Source: a virus
Lineage: Duplodnaviria > Heunggongvirae > Uroviricota > Caudoviricetes
Reading direction: 5' to 3' (one strand)
Length of the DNA stretch: 6,833 nt
Virus record (IMG/VR): IMGVR_UViG_2645727743_000001
Location: 1 to 6,833 of that record
Made by a program: the position numbers and the translations under genes. Position 1 is the first letter of the stretch, and the number at the start of each line of letters is the position of its first letter. Positions 1 through 6,695 of this stretch are shown piece by piece. Under the pieces are notes generated by a model. It saw nothing but the letters and a program-made list of their open reading frames with translations. It had not been told where the DNA came from and did not search any database.

Positions 1-603
1 CAGAAGCAGAAAAAGCTTATTATGCTTCCATCGGAAACGATGATCTGGCAGCCTGAGTTCACAGATAAAACACTCTCCAGGAAACCCGGGGCGGTTCACG
101 GCGTAAAGATTTGTCATGTAATTATTTACGGTGACAGCCGATCTCCCCGGTTGCGTAACAATATAATTACTTTTGGGGATCTGGTATCCAGTAAGTAATT
201 CTTTACGTACCGCCAGCAATTTTTCTTTATTAATCGACGAGGCAAGATTTTTTTCACCGATTATGCTCAGAATATTTTTGATGACGGCACGGTACGTGTT
301 GAGTGACGTTTTTGCGACTTCCGTTTCTTTCAGTGCCAGAAATTTTTCAGCCAGTTCCTTTATGGTTAAATCTTGTCGGGCCTCACCAAATTTTTCCAGA
401 TTGTGTGAGGAGGGAAACTGTTTTGCATAGTCGAAAACACCAGTTTTTATTGCGTAACAAACAGAGGCGCGCAGCTCACCTGCAATGCGCCTGTTTTTTG
501 CCGTGTCAGGAACCCCAAGATTTTCCCTGATTCTTACACCTTTATAAACAAACCAGATACGTAATTTCCCTCCATGGTTTTCCACGCCTGTCGGATATTT
601 CAT
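1..603 (-). CDS. int: Tyrosine integrase, N-terminal portion only (start at 603, continues past the left edge of the window)
   Basis: Minus-strand frame is open from ATG (revcomp of 601-603) to position 1; it is absent from the ORF track because it has no stop in the window. Hand translation begins MKYPTGVENHGGKLRIWFVYKGVRIRENLGVPDTAKNRRIAGELRASVCYAIKTGVFDYAKQF..., which resembles the arm-binding N-terminus of lambdoid integrases (Rac IntR from memory starts MSKLPTGVEIRGRYIRIWF). It lies 35 nt downstream of xis on the same strand. Possible weak SD GAGAGAAG upstream. Residues encoded by about 1-105 look less integrase-like to me. Confidence 0.6.
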   Translation of the reverse strand, partial: MKYPTGVENHGGKLRIWFVYKGVRIRENLGVPDTAKNRRIAGELRASVCYAIKTGVFDYAKQFPSSHNLEKFGEARQDLTIKELAEKFLALKETEVAKTSLNTYRAVIKNILSIIGEKNLASSINKEKLLAVRKELLTGYQIPKSNYIVTQPGRSAVTVNNYMTNLYAVNRPGFPGECFICELRLPDHRFRWKHNKLFLLL

Positions 604-958: not shown

Positions 959-3439
959 TTAAAAATCAGCCTGACTCGGGATCAGTTTTTGTATCGTAGC
1001 TGTAACGTATTTTGCCTGGTGACGGGCGTCATCCAGTGCATTGTGGCGCACGCCTTCGAATGGAATAACGGTTCTGGCATCAAAGTCGATTGTTTTTCCC
1101 AGCTCAACGATTGTGCGTACATCGCGATCGTTGTGGTAGCGCCACGGGCAGGGGATGTCCAGACGTTCGTATGAGGTGCGCAAAATTGCGTTATCGAAAG
1201 TCGCACCATTACCCCATACCTGAACGAATTTTTCATCTGAGTATTCGTTGATGAACTCCCGAAACTGCGAAAGGGCATCCTTCAGTTTTACCTGGTCTGT
1301 TAAAATGGCAGCTCTGGCTTCACTGGACTGCTTCAGCCACCATTCGATGGTTCCACCGTCAGGAACAGCCCCTGTATTCATTGCGTCAGTCAGACTGATA
1401 ACGATATAAAATACTGGCCCGATTTCCCCTGTTTGTGGGTCGAAGAAAACCGCACCAATAACCACGATGGGCGCATTGGTGTTGGTTCCCATTGTTTCAA
1501 GGTCGATCATCAAGTGGTACCACACTCTGCTGGTGGATGTGATAACGTGATGACCGTTCACCGCAATTAAGGGATCTGCCGTCTCGCCAGTTTCATTATC
1601 GCTGGCGTGGTCCTGAGCGCTGCCAGCATTCTCCTTGTGTGGATGTTCAGCGCCTTCCATTTCCTCCGGATCATTTTCCTGAACTTCAACCCGATTCTCT
1701 TCATTGAATGTTTCCTGGTATGTTGCGTCGCCCATCACCGCGCCACAATCAGGGCAGTTGCCGCCGCCGGTCTGACCGCAGGCGGTGCAGATCTTTTCCG
1801 GTTCCTGTTGCACTACTGGTTCAGGTTGTTTCGTTTCTGGCTCATTTTGTAACGCATTTGGGCTGTTTTGTTCCGCTTTCTGGCCGTTCTGTTCCGTTTC
1901 TTGCTGGTTCTGGTTCACAGAATCGCGGGTTTCCATCCCCTTCACCCATTTCGGATCATTCGGATCGCTAATTCCTGCAACAAATTCACCACGTGATACT
2001 GCAAGCAGTTCATCGGCGTCAGGCTGGCTGATATTGGCTGCCTGCATAATGTTGTTTACTTCGTCAGCGGTAACTTTTACCGGCCCTGGTTGTGCGGTCG
2101 TGTCAGATGCACCAGTATTTTGTTGTGAACCTGAGTATGTACTGTTTTTGCGGACGAAATATTCTTCTTTCGTGATTTCAGTAGCCCCGGCAGCCAGTGC
2201 CTTATCCAGACCAGAAAGTTTGTTTGCGCGACCGTATTTTTCGCCATCCTTGTCGGTGAAGAGGAAGTAGAACGGCCCCTCACGCTCTACAGATGGTTCG
2301 ACTTCCACTTTGCATTCGGTTTTTTCGTTGTCCGGAATTGCCGTTTCCACTGCATCAGTTTCTGGTACTGGCGACGAGAGAGTATCAGTTGCGCTCTGAT
2401 TTGTTCCTTCATCTTCAAACACGCCCTTTGTAGTCAGGTATTCAGTAATGTATTTGTTCAGTGCCACAGGGTCTTTGTGAATGTCGATCGGACGTTCACG
2501 GACAAGGCCAAAAATAGTCTGGCGGTCGTAGCGAAGGGCATCAGGCTGTTTGCGCATTGATGCTGAGATACGCTTCCAGTCTTCGCGGTCGTTGTTGATA
2601 ACTTCATTTTTTGCCCAGCGATGGATGCTGCCGTCAATGTTTCCGGCATCAACATCACCAGGCCACAGAGCGTAGGCCAGTTCATCATCCAGTGTTTTCC
2701 ATGTCTGCTTATATTCGCGACGAATGACAGCAATGACAGGGGAGATATTTTCTGCTGAGTTTTCAGTGTGCTGTCGGTTGACTCTGGCGCGGGCGAGATC
2801 AACAGCAGACGTGTATTTTCCGGTTTCCTTGCGTTCACCTTCGCGACGTTTTTTCCAGATGCGCATCTCTGCCTGAATTTCGGGCCATTTAGCACCAGGC
2901 TTACATTTATGCTTAACCCACCCGATGGCATGCAACTTAAGCTCCGGATACATGGCGTTAACTTCTGGCATTTTCATCAACGCTTCAACGATATGGCCGT
3001 CGAATGTTGCCATGTCTTCCTGCAACAATTCCTGTGCACTAATCACCATATCAACGGTGATGTTTTCACATGTGTCGAACTTAACCATGACAGCGTTCTG
3101 TACTTCAGGGGCCAGCTTGTCAAAAGTGACGTTCATCGGATCGGATTCAGTCTCAACCGGGACAAAGGAAGCAGACTCCTCATCCCAGCGGTTTTCCTGC
3201 ATATATTCAGCATCCCAGGAATCGAGGGCAGGGCGGGGTATACCGGGTTTATCCTCGCAAACAAGAAATTTATAAGCGCAGTCCTGAGCAGCCGGATAAT
3301 GTTCCAGGAATTGCCAGTGAAATTTTGCGCGGGCGCGACGTTCATCACCGGCTTCAATGGCAGTGGCTACAGCGACGGCACCTTCTTCCTTTATTGCCTG
3401 TTCGTCCGGAATGGCGGCGCAAATAAAGACTTTACTCAT
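959..3439 (-). CDS. ydfE: YdfE-family prophage protein, full length, with C-terminal DEDDh 3'-5' exonuclease domain (often annotated exodeoxyribonuclease VIII in lambdoid prophages)
   Basis: 826-aa ORF with SD GAGGT 9 nt upstream of ATG at 3439. The N-terminus MSKVFICAAIPDE...AVAVATAIEAGDERRARAKFHWQFLEHYPAAQDCAYKF matches my recollection of K-12 YdfE. The C-terminus carries DEDDh motifs: MIDLETMG (Exo I), WGNGATFDNAIL (Exo II), HNALDDARHQAKY (Exo III). The central region has a CxxC-x7-CxxC zinc-ribbon-like motif (CTACGQTGGGNCPDCG), a Q/E/P-rich low-complexity linker and the RecE-like segment LLAVSRGEFVAGISDPNDPKWVKG. Confidence 0.85.
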   Translation of the reverse strand: MSKVFICAAIPDEQAIKEEGAVAVATAIEAGDERRARAKFHWQFLEHYPAAQDCAYKFLVCEDKPGIPRPALDSWDAEYMQENRWDEESASFVPVETESDPMNVTFDKLAPEVQNAVMVKFDTCENITVDMVISAQELLQEDMATFDGHIVEALMKMPEVNAMYPELKLHAIGWVKHKCKPGAKWPEIQAEMRIWKKRREGERKETGKYTSAVDLARARVNRQHTENSAENISPVIAVIRREYKQTWKTLDDELAYALWPGDVDAGNIDGSIHRWAKNEVINNDREDWKRISASMRKQPDALRYDRQTIFGLVRERPIDIHKDPVALNKYITEYLTTKGVFEDEGTNQSATDTLSSPVPETDAVETAIPDNEKTECKVEVEPSVEREGPFYFLFTDKDGEKYGRANKLSGLDKALAAGATEITKEEYFVRKNSTYSGSQQNTGASDTTAQPGPVKVTADEVNNIMQAANISQPDADELLAVSRGEFVAGISDPNDPKWVKGMETRDSVNQNQQETEQNGQKAEQNSPNALQNEPETKQPEPVVQQEPEKICTACGQTGGGNCPDCGAVMGDATYQETFNEENRVEVQENDPEEMEGAEHPHKENAGSAQDHASDNETGETADPLIAVNGHHVITSTSRVWYHLMIDLETMGTNTNAPIVVIGAVFFDPQTGEIGPVFYIVISLTDAMNTGAVPDGGTIEWWLKQSSEARAAILTDQVKLKDALSQFREFINEYSDEKFVQVWGNGATFDNAILRTSYERLDIPCPWRYHNDRDVRTIVELGKTIDFDARTVIPFEGVRHNALDDARHQAKYVTATIQKLIPSQADF

Positions 3440-3532
3440 GTTGTTTTAACCTCATTACAGATTTAAGGGTGAACAAATCCCTGCCATTGCTGGCATATAA
3501 AAATGAAACCGGATATTAATTACGGAACTGTT

Positions 3533-3724
3533 TTAAAGACCTGCCGGGATTTCGTTATTATCCATGTGAATAACTTTATCGACCGGATAGCAGTTACCGG
3601 GAATTTTTTGTTCTGCTGCGGCAGCCATGCATTCTTTCATTGAACCGTAAATGTCAATAACCATGTCAACAGGCTCGCCAGTATTAAGAAAAACAGTCAG
3701 AGTGAGGGCAATAGTAGTATTCAT
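3533..3724 (-). CDS. ydfD: YdfD-like small lysis protein (63 aa, N-terminal hydrophobic segment)
   Basis: The ORF track gives 3533..3778, but the supported start is the internal ATG at 3722-3724, preceded by SD AAGGA (8-nt spacer) and overlapping the dicB stop in an ATGA arrangement. Product MNTTIALTLTVFLNTGEPVDMVIDIYGSMKECMAAAAEQKIPGNCYPVDKVIHMDNNEIPAGL is 63 aa, the length and position of Qin YdfD. Confidence 0.75.
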   Translation of the reverse strand: MNTTIALTLTVFLNTGEPVDMVIDIYGSMKECMAAAAEQKIPGNCYPVDKVIHMDNNEIPAGL

Positions 3725-3909
3725 TGCCAGTATCCTTTTTGCATCGGGCGTAAACGTGCCAGCATTGAAAGAATGCATATTTTATTTAATAGCTCCCGTT
3801 CGTGTTTTCTCTTATTAATGGCATCTTCAGTAAATACAGGGTTACTGATTCTGACACCAATTTCAAAACAACCTTCAGACGTATTGACGTTTGGTAATAA
3901 CGTTTCCAT
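3721..3909 (-). CDS. dicB: Cell division inhibitor DicB (MinC-activating, 62 aa)
   Basis: The ORF track gives 3721..4005, but the internal ATG at 3907-3909 has SD GAGGA 7 nt upstream. Product METLLPNVNTSEGCFEIGVRISNPVFTEDAINKRKHERELLNKICILSMLARLRPMQKGYWQ is 62 aa and matches my memory of DicB. It lies about 185 bp downstream of the DicF-like terminator, as in the K-12 dicB operon. Confidence 0.8.
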   Translation of the reverse strand: METLLPNVNTSEGCFEIGVRISNPVFTEDAINKRKHERELLNKICILSMLARLRPMQKGYWQ

Positions 3910-4092
3910 TATCGCGTCCTCAACAATGAATTTTGTGATGCGGTGCCTGGTGCCTCCAGGTGACGTTAACCAGTTAATAATTAACGCCGGATACAGAGAA
4001 CCCACCCATAAGAACCAATACGGAAGTCAACTGGCCTTTTTAACTGTTCCGCGTGCGCTGAGCCGCATTCACCGCATCACAAAATGCACTTT

Positions 4093-4150
4093 AAAAGGTG
4101 CGGGTATCATGGGAAAAACAAAACGGATACCCGCCAAAAGGTAATCAACA
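4093..4150 (-). ncRNA. dicF: DicF-like sRNA, divergent variant (boundaries approximate; 3' end set by hairpin plus U4)
   Basis: Minus-strand sequence TGTTGATTACCTTTTGGCGGGTATCCGTTTTGTTTTTCCCATGATACCCGCACCTTTT. It contains a 9-bp perfect stem (GCGGGTATC at 4134..4126 pairing with GATACCCGC at 4108..4100) followed by ACC and TTTT (4096..4093). It shares TTTGGCGG..TATC..GTTTT with the K-12 DicF sequence as I recall it, and sits in the expected position between ydfC and dicB. The 5' end is not determinable from sequence. Confidence 0.4.
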
Positions 4151-4480
4151 TGGGTTGTTGCAGCGGGGTTGTCACTCAGGCGTATGGTCAACCTGACAAC
4201 CCGGTGGACATTTGCGAGGAACGGAGAACCCCCGCCATACTTACCGCCGCGCCATTTCGCGGAGTGCCACAACCGGAAGCGCACGGTCGACGAAAATTTA
4301 ACGACAGGCTATCTATGAACCAACCACCTCGCCGTGCGCTTTCGCGTTATGCCCTGACTTTTCAGGGATATATTCTTTCTGTAAACTGTCAGTGCCGGAT
4401 ACTCACCCGTGTCCGGCGCACGCACTCCACCTCACCCGTGGAGAACTCCTTAATTACCAACCCTCAGGAGGGTGAAATTT

Positions 4481-4672
4481 ATGACACAAGAAGAAAAAGT
4501 AATGTTTCTTATGCGCCTGGCTGTGGAAACCTTTAACGCCCATTGCCAGGTGCCCCTTTCACTATCTCACGTTATTTCTCTTGCTACCGAGCAAATGGGG
4601 GAAATTGACGCCATTTACAATACATTTGAAGCATTCCTGGATAAGAAGCTTATGGCAGAGAAGCGTCAATAA
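4481..4672 (+). CDS. Hypothetical 63-aa protein, convergent with and overlapping the 3' end of the 201-aa cargo gene
   Basis: ATG at 4481 is preceded by a strong SD AGGAGGG (4466-4472) with an 8-nt spacer; the ORF track begins at the upstream GTG at 4472. Product MTQEEKVMFLMRLAVETFNAHCQVPLSLSHVISLATEQMGEIDAIYNTFEAFLDKKLMAEKRQ is non-repetitive and reads as helical. No competing long minus-strand ORF spans 4285-4649. No family recognised. Confidence 0.45.
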   Translation: MTQEEKVMFLMRLAVETFNAHCQVPLSLSHVISLATEQMGEIDAIYNTFEAFLDKKLMAEKRQ

Positions 4673-5255
4673 TCCTCATTACCCATCGTAAATTTACAGA
4701 AGTGGGCTTGATGTTGTGTTTTTCAAGCTCGCTCTTCATGATTTCCAGCAGCTTTGAGCTGATAATAAACAAATCAGGTGCATCGTTATTATTTTTATCC
4801 GCATCGTCTTTTTTCGTTTTTAACTCTTGCGGTGAATGTTCGAAAGCAACTTGCAGGGTATTATTTTTAACATCCACAGAGCTTAAAATATGTGCATATG
4901 GATGTGCTATTGTGCGCCCCTGTAAATTTGCATCGTTTTCTAAATCTTTTGATTTCAACAGAACATCAGCAAGACTCTGAATCATGCAGAGATAATCAAA
5001 AACAGTTGCCGTTTCTGTTCTGATTGCTGAAATAACATGACCATTCAGGCAAACAGAAATTACCCGTTCATCAATATCGTTTTCCTGTTTTTGATTATCA
5101 GAACCATATAGCCCTGAAAAAGCATTGCGCACATTACGAACCATATTATCGATGGTTTCTTTTTTGGTGTATGCCGGGTCAATTTTCACCAGACTATCAC
5201 CGAGTGTCGTTGCAGCAATTATCTGGATTTCTTTTGGTAAATCTTTAAATTCCAT
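4650..5255 (-). CDS. Hypothetical 201-aa soluble protein, low-GC cargo gene inserted in the dicB operon
   Basis: Intact ORF with SD GAGG 6 nt upstream of ATG at 5255, starting 22 nt after the ydfC-like stop (operon-coupled). Sampled 60-bp lines give about 33-42% GC versus about 57% in the ydfE gene. No transmembrane segment or catalytic motif recognised; there is a D/K/N-rich linker (KKDDADKNNNDAPD). Confidence 0.75.
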   Translation of the reverse strand: MEFKDLPKEIQIIAATTLGDSLVKIDPAYTKKETIDNMVRNVRNAFSGLYGSDNQKQENDIDERVISVCLNGHVISAIRTETATVFDYLCMIQSLADVLLKSKDLENDANLQGRTIAHPYAHILSSVDVKNNTLQVAFEHSPQELKTKKDDADKNNNDAPDLFIISSKLLEIMKSELEKHNIKPTSVNLRWVMRIIDASLP

Positions 5256-5277
5256 TATTAGCCTCGTTGGTTAACCA

Positions 5278-5496
5278 TTAACGTGGGTATGTAATCATTC
5301 TGGCAATGCTTAATGCCGCTGCTTTTTCCAGATTGGTGATATCCTGCTCCAGAGCGGACAGATTTTCAGCCTGCTTAGCCCTGGCTTCATTGGCCCATTT
5401 CAGGTCCTGCGCAGCCTTAATTTTCTGGTGCATCCACTCATAAAGTTCATCATCGGTATAGTCTGGCGCGATGATGACGGGTTCTCGTTTCTGCAT
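5278..5496 (-). CDS. ydfC: YdfC-like small prophage protein (72 aa)
   Basis: ORF MQKREPVIIAPDYTDDELYEWMHQKIKAAQDLKWANEARAKQAENLSALEQDITNLEKAAALSIARMITYPR with SD GAGGA 6 nt upstream of ATG at 5496. Same length and operon position as Qin YdfC. Confidence 0.7.
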   Translation of the reverse strand: MQKREPVIIAPDYTDDELYEWMHQKIKAAQDLKWANEARAKQAENLSALEQDITNLEKAAALSIARMITYPR

Positions 5497-5525
5497 ACTG
5501 ATTCCTCGCGGTGCTGCTTCGCTTA

Positions 5526-5654
5526 TCAGCCGTTAGATTTTGCCGGGCTGGAAAGCGCCTGTTTAAATTCGCTGAAGCTGAGGGCTTCTTCGCCTTCGGC
5601 AAGGCCTTCGAAGTATTCTTCGTAAGCCTTTTCCATGATTGTGTCGAAATCCAT
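5526..5654 (-). CDS. ydfB: YdfB-like small protein (42 aa), not in the ORF track
   Basis: Hand translation of the minus strand gives MDFDTIMEKAYEEYFEGLAEGEEALSFSEFKQALSSPAKSNG. ATG at 5652-5654 lies 1 nt after the ydfA-like TGA stop (TGAtATG); stop TGA at 5526-5528. Length and position match Qin YdfB. An alternative start is the internal ATG at 5634-5636. Confidence 0.6.
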   Translation of the reverse strand: MDFDTIMEKAYEEYFEGLAEGEEALSFSEFKQALSSPAKSNG

Positions 5655-5655
5655 A

Positions 5656-5811
5656 TCACCCACCTGAATCTCTTTCCAGCCAGCGACGCGCTCCAGATTC
5701 GGTTTTAAACGTTTTGCTTTTGGTATACGTCATTGCGGTGAACGTGCCGTCCTGGTTTGGAAACACGCCGTACACCAGAGATTCGTTGTTGCCAAGATCG
5801 ATAGTATCCAT
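5656..5811 (-). CDS. ydfA: YdfA-like small protein (51 aa, DUF1391-type)
   Basis: The ORF track gives 5656..5865; the internal ATG at 5809-5811 has GAGG 5 nt upstream. Product MDTIDLGNNESLVYGVFPNQDGTFTAMTYTKSKTFKTESGARRWLERDSGG is 51 aa and matches my recollection of YdfA. Confidence 0.7.
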   Translation of the reverse strand: MDTIDLGNNESLVYGVFPNQDGTFTAMTYTKSKTFKTESGARRWLERDSGG

Positions 5812-5889
5812 GCTGACCTCATTTCCCCTTAACGCCGGGGTAGCGGAACTGTTTGCTGAGAACACCGTGCGGTGTCTTGATGGAAAGTA

Positions 5890-5979: not shown

Positions 5980-6387
5980 TTATTTTATTGATTTATTTTT
6001 ACGCGCTTTAAGCATTTCTTCGAAGAGTTTGTTGAAGTTTTCTACTCTTGCGCGCATTTCAGACAGCAAGGCTTCCTGCTCGGAAGATGGAAGAGCATCG
6101 AATAATTCGATCAATTCTTTGTGGTTGGGAGTTAGCTCTGTTTCCACATGAAGTTCTTGTGCAGGCACTGGTGCCTTGTCTTCGTCACCAAACATTAGCC
6201 ATGTAGGTGAGCACTTCAGAGCATCCGCTAAAGCAAACAATCGTTTTCCGACTGGCTGGGTTTCGTCTCTTTCCCATTGTGAAATTGTGACGTGAGCAAC
6301 TCCAGCGAGGCGCGCAGCTTCTCGTTGTGTTAAGCGTAATTCTTTTCGTCGCGCCAGAACTCGCTGGCCTAGGGTTCTTGTATCCAT
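5980..6387 (-). CDS. dicA: HTH XRE-family repressor DicA (135 aa), the CI-like immunity repressor
   Basis: ORF MDTRTLGQRVLARRKELRLTQREAARLAGVAHVTISQWERDETQPVGKRLFALADALKCSPTWLMFGDEDK...EMRARVENFNKLFEEMLKARKNKSIK. It has the same length as K-12 DicA and shares CSPTWxxFGDEDK and EMRARVxNFNKLFEE with it (from memory). Divergent from the dicC-like gene. Weak or absent SD. Confidence 0.85.
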   Translation of the reverse strand: MDTRTLGQRVLARRKELRLTQREAARLAGVAHVTISQWERDETQPVGKRLFALADALKCSPTWLMFGDEDKAPVPAQELHVETELTPNHKELIELFDALPSSEQEALLSEMRARVENFNKLFEEMLKARKNKSIK

Positions 6388-6454: not shown

Positions 6455-6467
6455 AGAGGGGGCTTTG

Positions 6468-6695
6468 ATGCTTAAAGTTGACGCAATTACTTTTTTTGGC
6501 AGCAAAACAAAGCTTGCCAATGCCGCAGGAGTGAGACTGGCAAGTGTTGCTGCTTGGGGGATACTGGTTCCTGAAGGTCGCGCGATGCGTCTACAGGAGG
6601 CATCTGGCGGGGAGCTTCAGTATGATCCCAAAGTTTATGACGAATATCGTAAGACGAAGCGGGCGGGGCGGTTGAACAATGAAAATCACTCCTGA
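6468..6695 (+). CDS. dicC: DicC / YdaS-like Cro-type regulator (75 aa from ATG at 6468)
   Basis: [78 protein letters not shown]. The ORF track starts at TTG 6465; I prefer the ATG at 6468, 5 nt after SD AGAGGGGG. Divergent from dicA; fits the YdaS/DicC family pattern GSxxKLAxAxGVxxxSVxxW. Confidence 0.8.

Follow-up and report, generated by a model that had tools for sequence, protein, structure and literature searches.

What fills the space between ydfC and dicB in a Qin-like prophage when this space is longer than in E. coli K-12, and do the genes found there belong together? In the 6,833 bp of caudoviral DNA analysed here (the window; record IMGVR_UViG_2645727743_000001), this part of the dicB operon carries two convergent genes, designated here as gene A and gene B, which the initial annotation had taken for foreign cargo and for the best candidate for an undescribed system. 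A defence, anti-defence or toxin role for gene A and gene B, as proposed there, would have to be deduced from their position alone. Note that a part of PMC5069750 dealing with the operon of ydfC, dicF and dicB describes a "long untranslated region" after ydfC, and in that part of the paper the gene A/gene B module is not mentioned.

An extra block in the dicB operon

The window and the Qin prophage of K-12 share the gene order of the dicB operon (ydfABC-dicF-dicB-ydfD), with 88-89% DNA identity on both flanks, whereas K-12 lacks gene A, gene B and the ribosome-binding site (RBS) of gene B and possesses canonical DicF instead of the hairpin allele of the window. When compared with K-12 using blastn, positions 6098-5258 and 4462-2673 of the window mapped to adjoining positions of the K-12 locus (2562/2563), and the 795 bp between them had no counterpart there, with exact boundaries (Table 1). 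The insertion boundaries, for which alignment of Qin-like prophages had been proposed as a check, are thus those of a clean 795-bp indel. The extra DNA is therefore real, but several of the values first given for it had to be corrected. In K-12, the ydfC stop is 340 bp away from dicF (567 bp from dicB) and not about 260 bp, and of the proposed span 4150-5277 only 4463-5257 is extra, whereas 4150-4462 is the conserved 5' leader of dicF, which K-12 possesses at ~90% identity. Of the two gene blocks reported around the insert, ydfA-ydfB-ydfC, dicB and a ydfD-like gene are present, whereas DicF as such is absent. The insert genes are indeed of low GC content (gene A, 37.3%; gene B, 42.7%; the entire insert, 38.6%; whole window, 46.3%), but the 57% assigned to the flanks was too high, as these have 48-56% (ydfC, 47.9%; ydfA-B, 50.0%; leader, 55.6%). 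Furthermore, low GC content is not unusual here, as dicB in the same operon (37.6%) is as AT-rich as gene A.

Table 1. Features of the dicB operon region in the window (positions refer to the window)
Feature	Position	Strand	Description	Basis
ydfA	5656..5865	-	present	
ydfB	5526..5663	-	present	
ydfC	5278..5496	-	upstream neighbour	phrog_1744 at 2e-39; so annotated in near-identical genomes
Extra block	4463..5257		contains gene A, gene B and the gene B RBS	blastn and junction sequences
Gene A	4650..5255	-	201 aa, on the dicB-operon strand, 22 nt after ydfC	ORF list, phrog matches
Gene A residues 1-130	4866..5255	-	common early-left protein	DNA match, protein alignments
C-domain	4653..4775	-	gene A residues 161-201 (LFIISSKLLEIMKSELEKHNIKPTSVNLRWVMRIIDASLP), predicted helical hairpin	AlphaFold2
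3'-end overlap of gene A and gene B	4650..4672		23 nt	ORF coordinates
Gene B	4481..4672	+	63 aa, convergent to gene A	ORF list, phrog_2605
Gene B RBS	4466..4471	+	AGGAGG	junction comparison
Candidate gene B promoter	4359..4387	+	TTTTCA, 17 nt, TAAACT; 8/12 consensus positions	by eye, upstream alignment
Structured 5' leader	4151..4462	-	conserved, GC-rich, upstream of the DicF position, outside the insert	alignment to K-12
Divergent DicF-position allele	4093..4150	-	9-bp GC-rich stem, 17-nt loop, U-run	alignment to K-12, fold
dicB	3721..3909	-	downstream neighbour	annotation in near-identical genomes, alignment to K-12 dicB
ydfD-like gene	3533..3778	-	present	

Occupants of the variable slot

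The 795 bases lie in a slot at which lambdoid early-left (pL-type) operons regularly differ in gene content. The gene in this slot is convergent to the repressor-controlled operon and closely precedes the sRNA and FtsZ-inhibitor genes; in the equivalent slot, lambda and Rac have sieB, which blocks rival phages, e14 has ymfI, and a gene for a 77-aa protein is also found there. Because the slot is regularly variable and K-12 still possesses the sequence preceding gene B, the premise of a foreign insert is weak, and for the latter reason the block may just as well have been deleted from K-12.

One of the closest known relatives of the window arrangement is the 135-aa/77-aa gene pair found in PPompW prophages of O157:H7 and in phage Evi, with which it has the slot, the N-terminal 130 aa of gene A, the leader, the RBS and a 23-nt overlap in common. 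However, the 135-aa protein stops 13 aa past the breakpoint and has no C-domain (see below), and its 77-aa partner is unrelated to gene B. The leader and RBS preceding the two unrelated convergent genes are identical (junction sequences AGGAGGGTGAAATTTATG before gene B and AGGAGGGTGAATG before the 77-aa gene). In lambda, P22 and Rac, sieB has the same slot and orientation as gene B and adjoins or overlaps the early gene before it at the 3' end of the latter: lambda sieB is convergent to N and abuts it, and Rac sieB overlaps ydaF and lies upstream of kilS and kilR (order ydaF, sieB, kilS, kilR). Gene B is placed like sieB, i.e., convergent in the early-left operon and near the first early genes. 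The products, however, are dissimilar in sequence, SieB being a protein of 162-184 aa with hydrophobic segments and gene B encoding a soluble 63-aa peptide. In e14, ymfJ and ymfI (located between the repressor and xis/int) are convergent and overlapping like gene A and gene B, and the YmfJ N-terminus resembles that of 118-119-aa gene A variants, whereas neither the C-terminus of YmfJ nor YmfI, both likewise without a described function, is related to the C-domain or gene B. Both ymfI-ymfJ and sieB-ydaF appear as convergent excludons in an RNA-seq listing for MG1655 (PMC12288877).

Gene A and its C-terminal domain

Gene A is intact, starts 22 nt past the ydfC stop and is preceded by a GAGG Shine-Dalgarno sequence, as initially annotated. 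By its alignments, it is a chimera in which a linker joins an N-terminal protein of the 135-aa type to a C-terminal two-helix domain (C-domain). phrog_1363 matches aa 1-130 (2.8e-41), and phrog_15476 and phrog_2982 match aa 160-200. Residues 1-130 correspond to the stand-alone 135-aa gene of the O157 PPompW prophages and phage Evi, and their first ~55 aa are a domain common to many proteins with variable C-termini. An exhaustive HMM search of 1.84 billion representatives returned only 65 hits, all from a single narrow phage family with no tie to a known family and mostly matching these ~55 aa only. Of 5,426 complete E. coli genomes, 677 have the N-terminal two thirds of gene A in this place (scored by a DNA match to that half of the insert only), i.e., in the common 135-aa form, but the fused form with the C-terminal extension and gene B is present in only eight. 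The notion of a rare cargo gene is thus correct for the C-terminal extension and gene B, but not for the N-terminal two thirds. Full-length 201-aa homologs (81-100% identity) are present in E. coli, E. albertii and Salmonella. Lysogens with the identical block include E. coli E300082, TD225-C4, B7A and AST205.

The C-domain (~45 aa) is a portable domain with a predicted two-helix fold. AlphaFold2 modelling of aa 146-201 with an alignment of 23 sequences predicted helices at 159-179 and 186-199 (pLDDT 84). The domain occurs in stand-alone forms of 57-68 aa as well as fused to other N-termini in proteins of 64, 118-121, 158 and 171 aa; five different upstream proteins serve as fusion partners, including the 135-aa type, a YmfJ-like N-terminus and a YdfC-like N-terminus. 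A ribbon-helix-helix (Arc/MetJ/CopG) identity was considered and rejected, as neither the beta-alpha-alpha fold nor a match to a family of this type was found.

Sequence and profile searches with gene A, gene B and the C-domain against Pfam, NCBIfam, PADLOC and PDB gave no match; in PADLOC-DB 2.0 (E<=1), no family was retrieved for gene A, gene B or YdfC. No catalytic motif was detected in the product of gene A or gene B. The initial statement that no family was recognised in either protein therefore holds for these databases, but not for PHROG, where both match families of unknown function (phrog_2605 matches gene B with 1.1e-17).

Gene B and its linkage to the C-domain

The convergent 63-aa ORF of the initial annotation was confirmed, together with its AGGAGG. 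The gene B product is a small soluble protein in which no membrane segment was found, with conserved segments at the N-terminus (MTQEEKVMFLMRLAV) and the C-terminus (IYxxFExFLDxKL). It is not a relative of SieB, YmfI or the 77-aa protein: blastp against lambda and Rac SieB gave E >= 0.18 over 8 residues, and there was no match to Pfam SieB. Likewise, gene A and gene B are not diverged duplicates of one another (hhalign probability 0.04%). Both genes are under purifying selection (dN/dS 0.15-0.41 for gene A, with the lowest value, 0.15, in the linker, and 0.42 for gene B), and the proposal that they represent undescribed genes stands: both are intact, have no described function and belong to a strictly linked module.

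The C-domain and gene B were found together, convergent and overlapping, in 137 of 137 locus records, which are partly redundant (some contigs were sampled twice) and represent only ~10 sequence lineages, distributed over Escherichia, Salmonella, Shigella, Kluyvera and Edwardsiella. The direction of the search made no difference: all 41 IMG/VR loci fetched via gene B contained a convergent C-domain, all 74 fetched via the C-domain contained a convergent gene B, and in a set of loci fetched via A only, via B only or from phage records, 22 of the 22 holding either one held both. Gene B homologs share 35-98% identity, and the ORF is intact in every copy (128 copies, 62-69 aa), overlapping gene A by 23-39 nt in all loci. 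Both members are still found together at amino acid identities as low as 35% (gene B) and 41-55% (C-domain), e.g., in SfII, Edwardsiella EPP-1 and phiSTEC1589; the DNA of such distant copies is past blastn detection, and they were found by tblastn (35-55% amino acid identity). Outside phages, a single weak hit was obtained among 72,556 plasmids. By their joint distribution, the C-domain and gene B are thus obligately linked in divergent temperate phages, irrespective of the fusion partner of the C-domain. The ORF overlap by itself could account for part of this co-inheritance.

The common leader and a candidate promoter

The leader preceding gene B is ~90% identical to that of K-12 and structured (fold of 4086-4480, z = -2.5 vs shuffles). 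A scan for consensus sigma-70 promoters from 3900 to 5600 found none, but a candidate with imperfect boxes lies upstream of gene B (Table 1). Of 145 loci, 75 (K-12 among them) retain the motif TTTCA-N17/18-TAAACT, but the leader around it is conserved anyway. In loci of the SfII type, a better promoter candidate (TTCACC, 16 nt, TGgTATCTT) is found, which is absent from the window type. A consensus scan on either strand revealed no terminator between gene A and gene B, and the pair has, with its 23-nt ORF overlap, the anatomy of a convergent excludon.

Proposed function of the gene pair

The best explanation of this slot-filling two-gene module, which we put forward tentatively and with less than even confidence, is that B is made in the lysogen, the C-domain is its partner at induction, and convergent transcription reinforces the switch between them. 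Gene B would be transcribed in the repressed state from its own promoter in the common leader, in the manner of sieB in lambda, P22 and Rac; if this promoter is active under repression, B would be a lysogen-expressed accessory product. Upon induction or infection, the DicA-controlled operon would be read through gene A and across gene B in antisense, and B would be lowered via transcriptional interference and RNA duplex formation, as in an excludon. The C-domain of gene A may then bind B and either neutralise it, so that lytic growth of the phage itself is unharmed (comparable to the action of Esc on SieB), or put the protein attached to it under the control of B. A precedent is SieB, which is lysogen-expressed and is opposed both by Esc, a partner that the phage itself encodes, and by the sas antisense RNA (PMC12197685). 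Note, however, that Esc is an internal product of sieB, whereas the C-domain is the C-terminus of gene B's convergent neighbour, and that the analogy to superinfection exclusion is positional only, because gene B has no SieB similarity, membrane segment or PADLOC match. A more far-reaching idea, to which we give little credence, is that the C-domain (~45 aa) and the 63-aa protein are a portable two-part switch of temperate phages, in which the C-domain would be either a C-terminal "handle", by which any early protein fused to it comes under the control of a lysogen-made binder, or a self-antidote; in the latter case, B might be a peptide of a new and very small kind that acts in superinfection exclusion or modulates the host. 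With either option, convergent transcription would hard-wire B to be on in lysogeny and off on induction.

Three other readings have to be weighed against this explanation. That the pair is foreign cargo for defence, abortive infection or toxin-antitoxin function, one protein being toxic or an effector and the other its antidote, is distinctly unlikely: apart from the missing database matches and the weakness of the foreign-insert premise, the products are helical peptides of ~45-63 aa without an enzymatic motif, and the module is restricted to temperate phages but for one weak plasmid hit. Besides, type II toxin-antitoxin pairs are co-directional bicistrons, whereas gene A and gene B are convergent, and neither matches a toxin or antitoxin family. 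An identity as a type II system was rejected, as neither the co-directional operon nor a recognisable toxin or antitoxin fold was found. It is likewise improbable that the pair acts mainly in cis, at the RNA level, i.e., that transcription of B insulates the toxic genes downstream (DicF allele, dicB and ydfD) from leaky read-through and sets an induction threshold, with the peptides mattering little. The B transcription unit would indeed start within the conserved dicF leader and run against the operon, no terminator was found between the two genes, and convergent pairs at the equivalent slot of K-12 prophages behave as excludons (PMC12288877). However, the proteins are conserved where the DNA has diverged past blastn detection, dN/dS is below 1, ORF length is kept in 128 of 128 copies, and the fold of the C-domain is predicted confidently.

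We also consider it unlikely that there is no joint function at all and that unrelated mosaic ORFs are co-travelling by virtue of their 3' overlap, the 201-aa protein being an accidental in-frame fusion. This would be in line with the mosaicism of lambdoid genomes, the rarity of the fused form, the PGAP label of a near-identical gene A copy in strain AST205 (incomplete pseudogene) and the AlphaFold2 model of full-length gene A, which is unusable (pLDDT 43). Nevertheless, the overlap is merely 23-39 nt, yet neither gene was lost or broken in ~10 lineages, and the length of exactly 201 aa is kept at 81-100% identity in three species and with different immunity regions. Furthermore, the linker has the lowest dN/dS, and the C-domain was independently fused to at least five N-termini.

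If this explanation is correct, gene B would be a new minimal occupant of the sieB slot of lambdoid phages, and the pair would be a second, sequence-unrelated case of a lysogen-expressed factor with an induction-expressed antagonist. It would also mean that a short C-terminal domain can move among early proteins along with its partner gene. Two PHROG families of unknown function, which occur in Shiga-toxin phages, O104:H4, ETEC strains, Shigella SfII and Edwardsiella phages, become open to concrete tests through this pair.

The DicF position

Between the conserved leader and dicB, where DicF is expected, the flanks align to K-12, but a different, terminator-like hairpin with a U-run stands in place of the sRNA body, i.e., an allele of DicF by position. 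Rfam DicF (RF00039) gave no hit at the gathering threshold in the whole window and none at E<=10 within 3900-5300. The duplex with the ftsZ translation-initiation region, estimated with the crude duplexfold, had -22.7 kcal/mol (z +1.3 vs shuffles), compared with -38.5 for K-12 DicF. Among the loci, at least five hairpin alleles occupy the DicF position, making it a polymorphic cassette. Some of these alleles are not recognised by Rfam, and the cassette may prove equally useful for sRNA biology.

Gene organization of the prophage region

Gene content identifies the window as part of a Qin-like lambdoid prophage, namely its immunity and early-left region; the early-left operon is on the minus strand. 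The closest complete genomes (97-99% identity) belong to E. coli from human and animal sources, ETEC strains among them. The intact 826-aa exonuclease (phrog_2082) has an Rv2179c-like 3'-5' exonuclease domain at its C-terminus and its gene is followed by an excisionase-like ORF of 83 aa; the K-12 counterpart, ydfE, carries an IS2 insertion and is a pseudogene. The K-12 intQ region is matched at 94% identity. By sequence, the window prophage is less decayed than K-12 Qin.

Features of the window with their positions and GC content
Feature	Position	Strand	GC (%)
dicC-like gene	6465-6695	plus	
dicA-like repressor gene	5980-6387		
ydfA (DUF1391)	5656-5865	minus (operon)	50.0 (with ydfB)
ydfB	5526-5663	minus (operon)	50.0 (with ydfA)
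ydfC	5278-5496	minus (operon)	47.9
Gene A (201 aa)	4650-5255	minus (operon)	37.3
Gene B (63 aa, from ATG)	4481-4672	plus	42.7
Gene B RBS (AGGAGG)	4466-4471		
GC-rich non-coding dicF leader, between gene A and dicB	4150-4462		55.6
Two leader hairpins	4388-4462	both	
Candidate gene B promoter	4359-4387		
boxB-like hairpin	4352-4367	operon strand	
DicF-position hairpin, between gene A and dicB	4093-4150	minus	
150-aa ORF, apparently spurious	4084-4536	plus	
71-aa ORF, apparently spurious	4069-4284	minus	
STnc100-like stretch	3932-4085	minus	
dicB	3721-3909	minus (operon)	37.6
ydfD-like gene (DUF1482)	3533-3778	minus (operon)	
3'-5' exonuclease gene	959-3439	minus	
Excisionase-like ORF	638-889	minus	
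Match to K-12 intQ region	97-482		
Whole window			46.3

Some prophages with the same gene A/gene B pair carry a PaaA2/ParE toxin-antitoxin pair between the repressor gene and ydfA (loci L020, 1694-2172, and L027, 4109-4590). This gap is a second variable slot of the operon.

A 795-bp block distinguishes the window from K-12 Qin

In blastn, window positions 6098-5258 and 4462-2673 map collinearly to positions 1724-2562 and 2563-4345 of the K-12 locus, and K-12 therefore lacks exactly 4463-5257 (795 bp), with no other rearrangement. The initial annotation had placed extra DNA here, which is borne out by this clean difference; of the span it proposed (4150-5277), however, ~310 bp (4150-4462) are the conserved dicF leader, present also in K-12. 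Its K-12 spacing of ~260 bp was wrong, the distance from the ydfC stop being 340 bp to dicF (and 567 bp to dicB), and its ~57% GC for the flanks was overstated (see the table). The block is AT-rich, and so is dicB. K-12 retains the leader without the RBS and without either gene, and a deletion in K-12 would explain the difference as easily as an insertion in the window. The step from foreign cargo to a defence system is unsupported. The two genes are, as had been proposed, genuinely uncharacterized: neither they nor the C-terminal domain of the gene A product matched anything in Pfam, NCBIfam, PADLOC or PDB.

Gene A is a chimera

Only the half of the block encoding residues 1 to ~130 of gene A is widespread, with matches in 677 of 5,426 complete E. 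coli genomes (85-89% DNA identity; O157:H7 PPompW prophages, phage Evi and others). In these genomes the counterpart encodes 135 aa, stopping 13 residues past the breakpoint, and after it comes an unrelated, convergent gene of 77 aa. The full other half, i.e., the C-terminal extension of gene A plus gene B, was found in 8 of the 5,426. The protein families split likewise: phrog_1363 covers residues 1-130, and phrog_15476 and phrog_2982 cover 160-200; like phrog_2605, matched by the gene B product, they have no assigned function. Gene A is a common early-left gene in a rare form, with a small portable domain (C-domain) joined to it. Full-length homologs (81-100% identity) occur in E. coli, E. 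albertii and Salmonella alongside differing immunity regions, and gene B accompanies every one of them. The full-length structural model is not usable (pLDDT 43); the C-domain alone, modelled from a 23-sequence alignment, is confidently predicted to form a helical hairpin (pLDDT 84; helices 159-179 and 186-199). Every part of the module is under purifying selection (dN/dS of 0.38 for residues 1-130, 0.15 for the linker, 0.41 for the C-domain and 0.42 for gene B).

Note that in E. coli AST205 (99% identical to the window; L002, 7357-7755) PGAP annotates the 201-aa gene as a 133-codon pseudogene ('incomplete, missing C-terminus'), apparently because the annotation takes the 135-aa form as reference family; one and the same strand there carries the C-domain as well as the N-terminal part.

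Gene B is strictly linked to the C-domain

Gene B overlaps the 3' end of gene A by 23 nt; a relationship between the two proteins was considered and rejected on comparison. Gene B and the 68 C-terminal residues of gene A, used as separate tblastn queries, retrieved the same phage records (Shigella phage SfII, Edwardsiella phage EPP-1, phiSTEC1589-Stx1c and PhiR5_2), and in each of them the two matches adjoin convergently (35-54% identity). The C-domain, with the pattern LxISSxLLxxLKSELxxxxIxPTxxxLxxVxxII, stands alone (57-68 aa; an unannotated ORF in SfII, Kluyvera and E. coli) or is part of larger proteins: it is C-terminal in those of 118-121 aa, some of which have an N-terminus like that of YmfJ, and occurs in one of 158 aa, in one of 171 aa whose N-terminus resembles YdfC, and in the 201-aa protein of the window. 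These comparisons show a portable domain that attaches to whichever gene is upstream. In two IMG/VR contigs with the 171-aa form (L069 and L070) the resemblance to YdfC reads MEKQEPQVIVNGMSNDELFQWVKEK versus MQKREPVIIAPDYTDDELYEWMHQK.

Both elements were present in all 22 loci found via gene A only, via gene B only or from phage records; a convergent C-domain accompanied gene B in 41/41 IMG/VR loci fetched via gene B, and a convergent gene B was found in 74/74 fetched via the C-domain, although there is redundancy among these records, with some contigs sampled twice, and they represent ~10 sequence lineages. Gene B is intact in every locus (62-69 aa; overlap of 23-39 nt). At the sequence level, this shows the C-domain and gene B to be an obligate, strictly linked pair conserved as proteins. 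Only 65 relatives emerged when 1.84 billion representatives were searched exhaustively with a profile, and 72,556 plasmids gave one weak match; the module is essentially confined to temperate phages.

The module occupies a sieB-type slot

The same leader and RBS precede gene B (AGGAGGGTGAAATTTATG) and, in O157 and Evi, the unrelated 77-aa gene (AGGAGGGTGAATG); the leader therefore serves as a platform shared by alternative convergent genes. The same architecture is found in Rac (racR, ydaG, ydaF of DUF1391, convergent sieB with a 4-nt overlap, the kilS sRNA and kilR), in lambda (N with an abutting convergent sieB) and in e14 (ymfK, ymfJ and convergent ymfI with a 63-nt overlap). The block is shown to be a two-gene module in a sieB-type slot. 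Convergent accessory genes in prophage early-left operons are a known kind, of which the module appears to be a new variant. Convergent excludons found in MG1655 RNA-seq include ymfI-ymfJ and sieB-ydaF (PMC12288877), and SieB is an exclusion protein that is expressed in the lysogen, where Esc and the sas antisense RNA control it (PMC12197685).

We tentatively propose, as one joint reading, that in the repressed prophage gene B would be expressed from a promoter in the leader, and that upon induction operon transcription would run through it in antisense, excludon-like, while the operon simultaneously supplies the C-domain, which would bind the gene B product. A consensus scan of the region found no promoter; the candidate TTTTCA-17 nt-TAAACT matches 8 of 12 consensus positions and is conserved, but lies inside a leader that is conserved anyway. 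That genes A and B are inherited together without joint function is unlikely. Two further readings we consider slightly less likely still, and to an equal degree: a stand-alone defence or toxin-antitoxin system, and an RNA-level insulator of the toxic genes downstream that would act mainly in cis.

The DicF position and the leader

The initial annotation had reported DicF as present; this identification did not hold. Rfam gave no DicF match in the window at the gathering threshold, and none at E<=10 in 3900-5300; in the alignment to K-12 the flanks are near-identical and the 53-nt sRNA is replaced by TTGATTACCTTTTGGCGGGTATCCGTTTTGTTTTTCCCATGATACCCGCACCTTTT. Related loci differ at this position, with at least five alleles that are all terminator-like hairpins but vary in stem and loop (a polymorphic cassette, seen also in L001, L003, L004, L011, L017 and L019-L021). 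In a crude duplex calculation, the window allele pairs with the ftsZ start region at -22.7 kcal/mol versus -38.5 for K-12 DicF, the weakest among the alleles and no better than shuffles.

Between this hairpin and dicB lies a sub-threshold match to STnc100, a Salmonella sRNA family (32.5 bits versus a gathering score of 47; E 5.9e-5), whose 28-nt core (4049-4076) recurs upstream of SfII_36 in phage SfII (96% identity). The leader is ~90% identical to that of K-12, and a folding prediction indicates structure in it (z = -2.5). The two ORFs running through it look spurious, as their frames are broken in related loci, and K-12 annotation treats the region as non-coding. The leader further contains two adjacent hairpins, CTCCAC-GGGTGAG-GTGGAG and GCCGGA-CACGGGTGAGT-ATCCGGC, with the same loop motif on the operon strand (CACGGGTGAG), and just downstream of them a boxB-like hairpin (CCCTGAAAAGTCAGGG). 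SfII-type loci without dicF carry a hairpin of similar form and spacing upstream of gene B.
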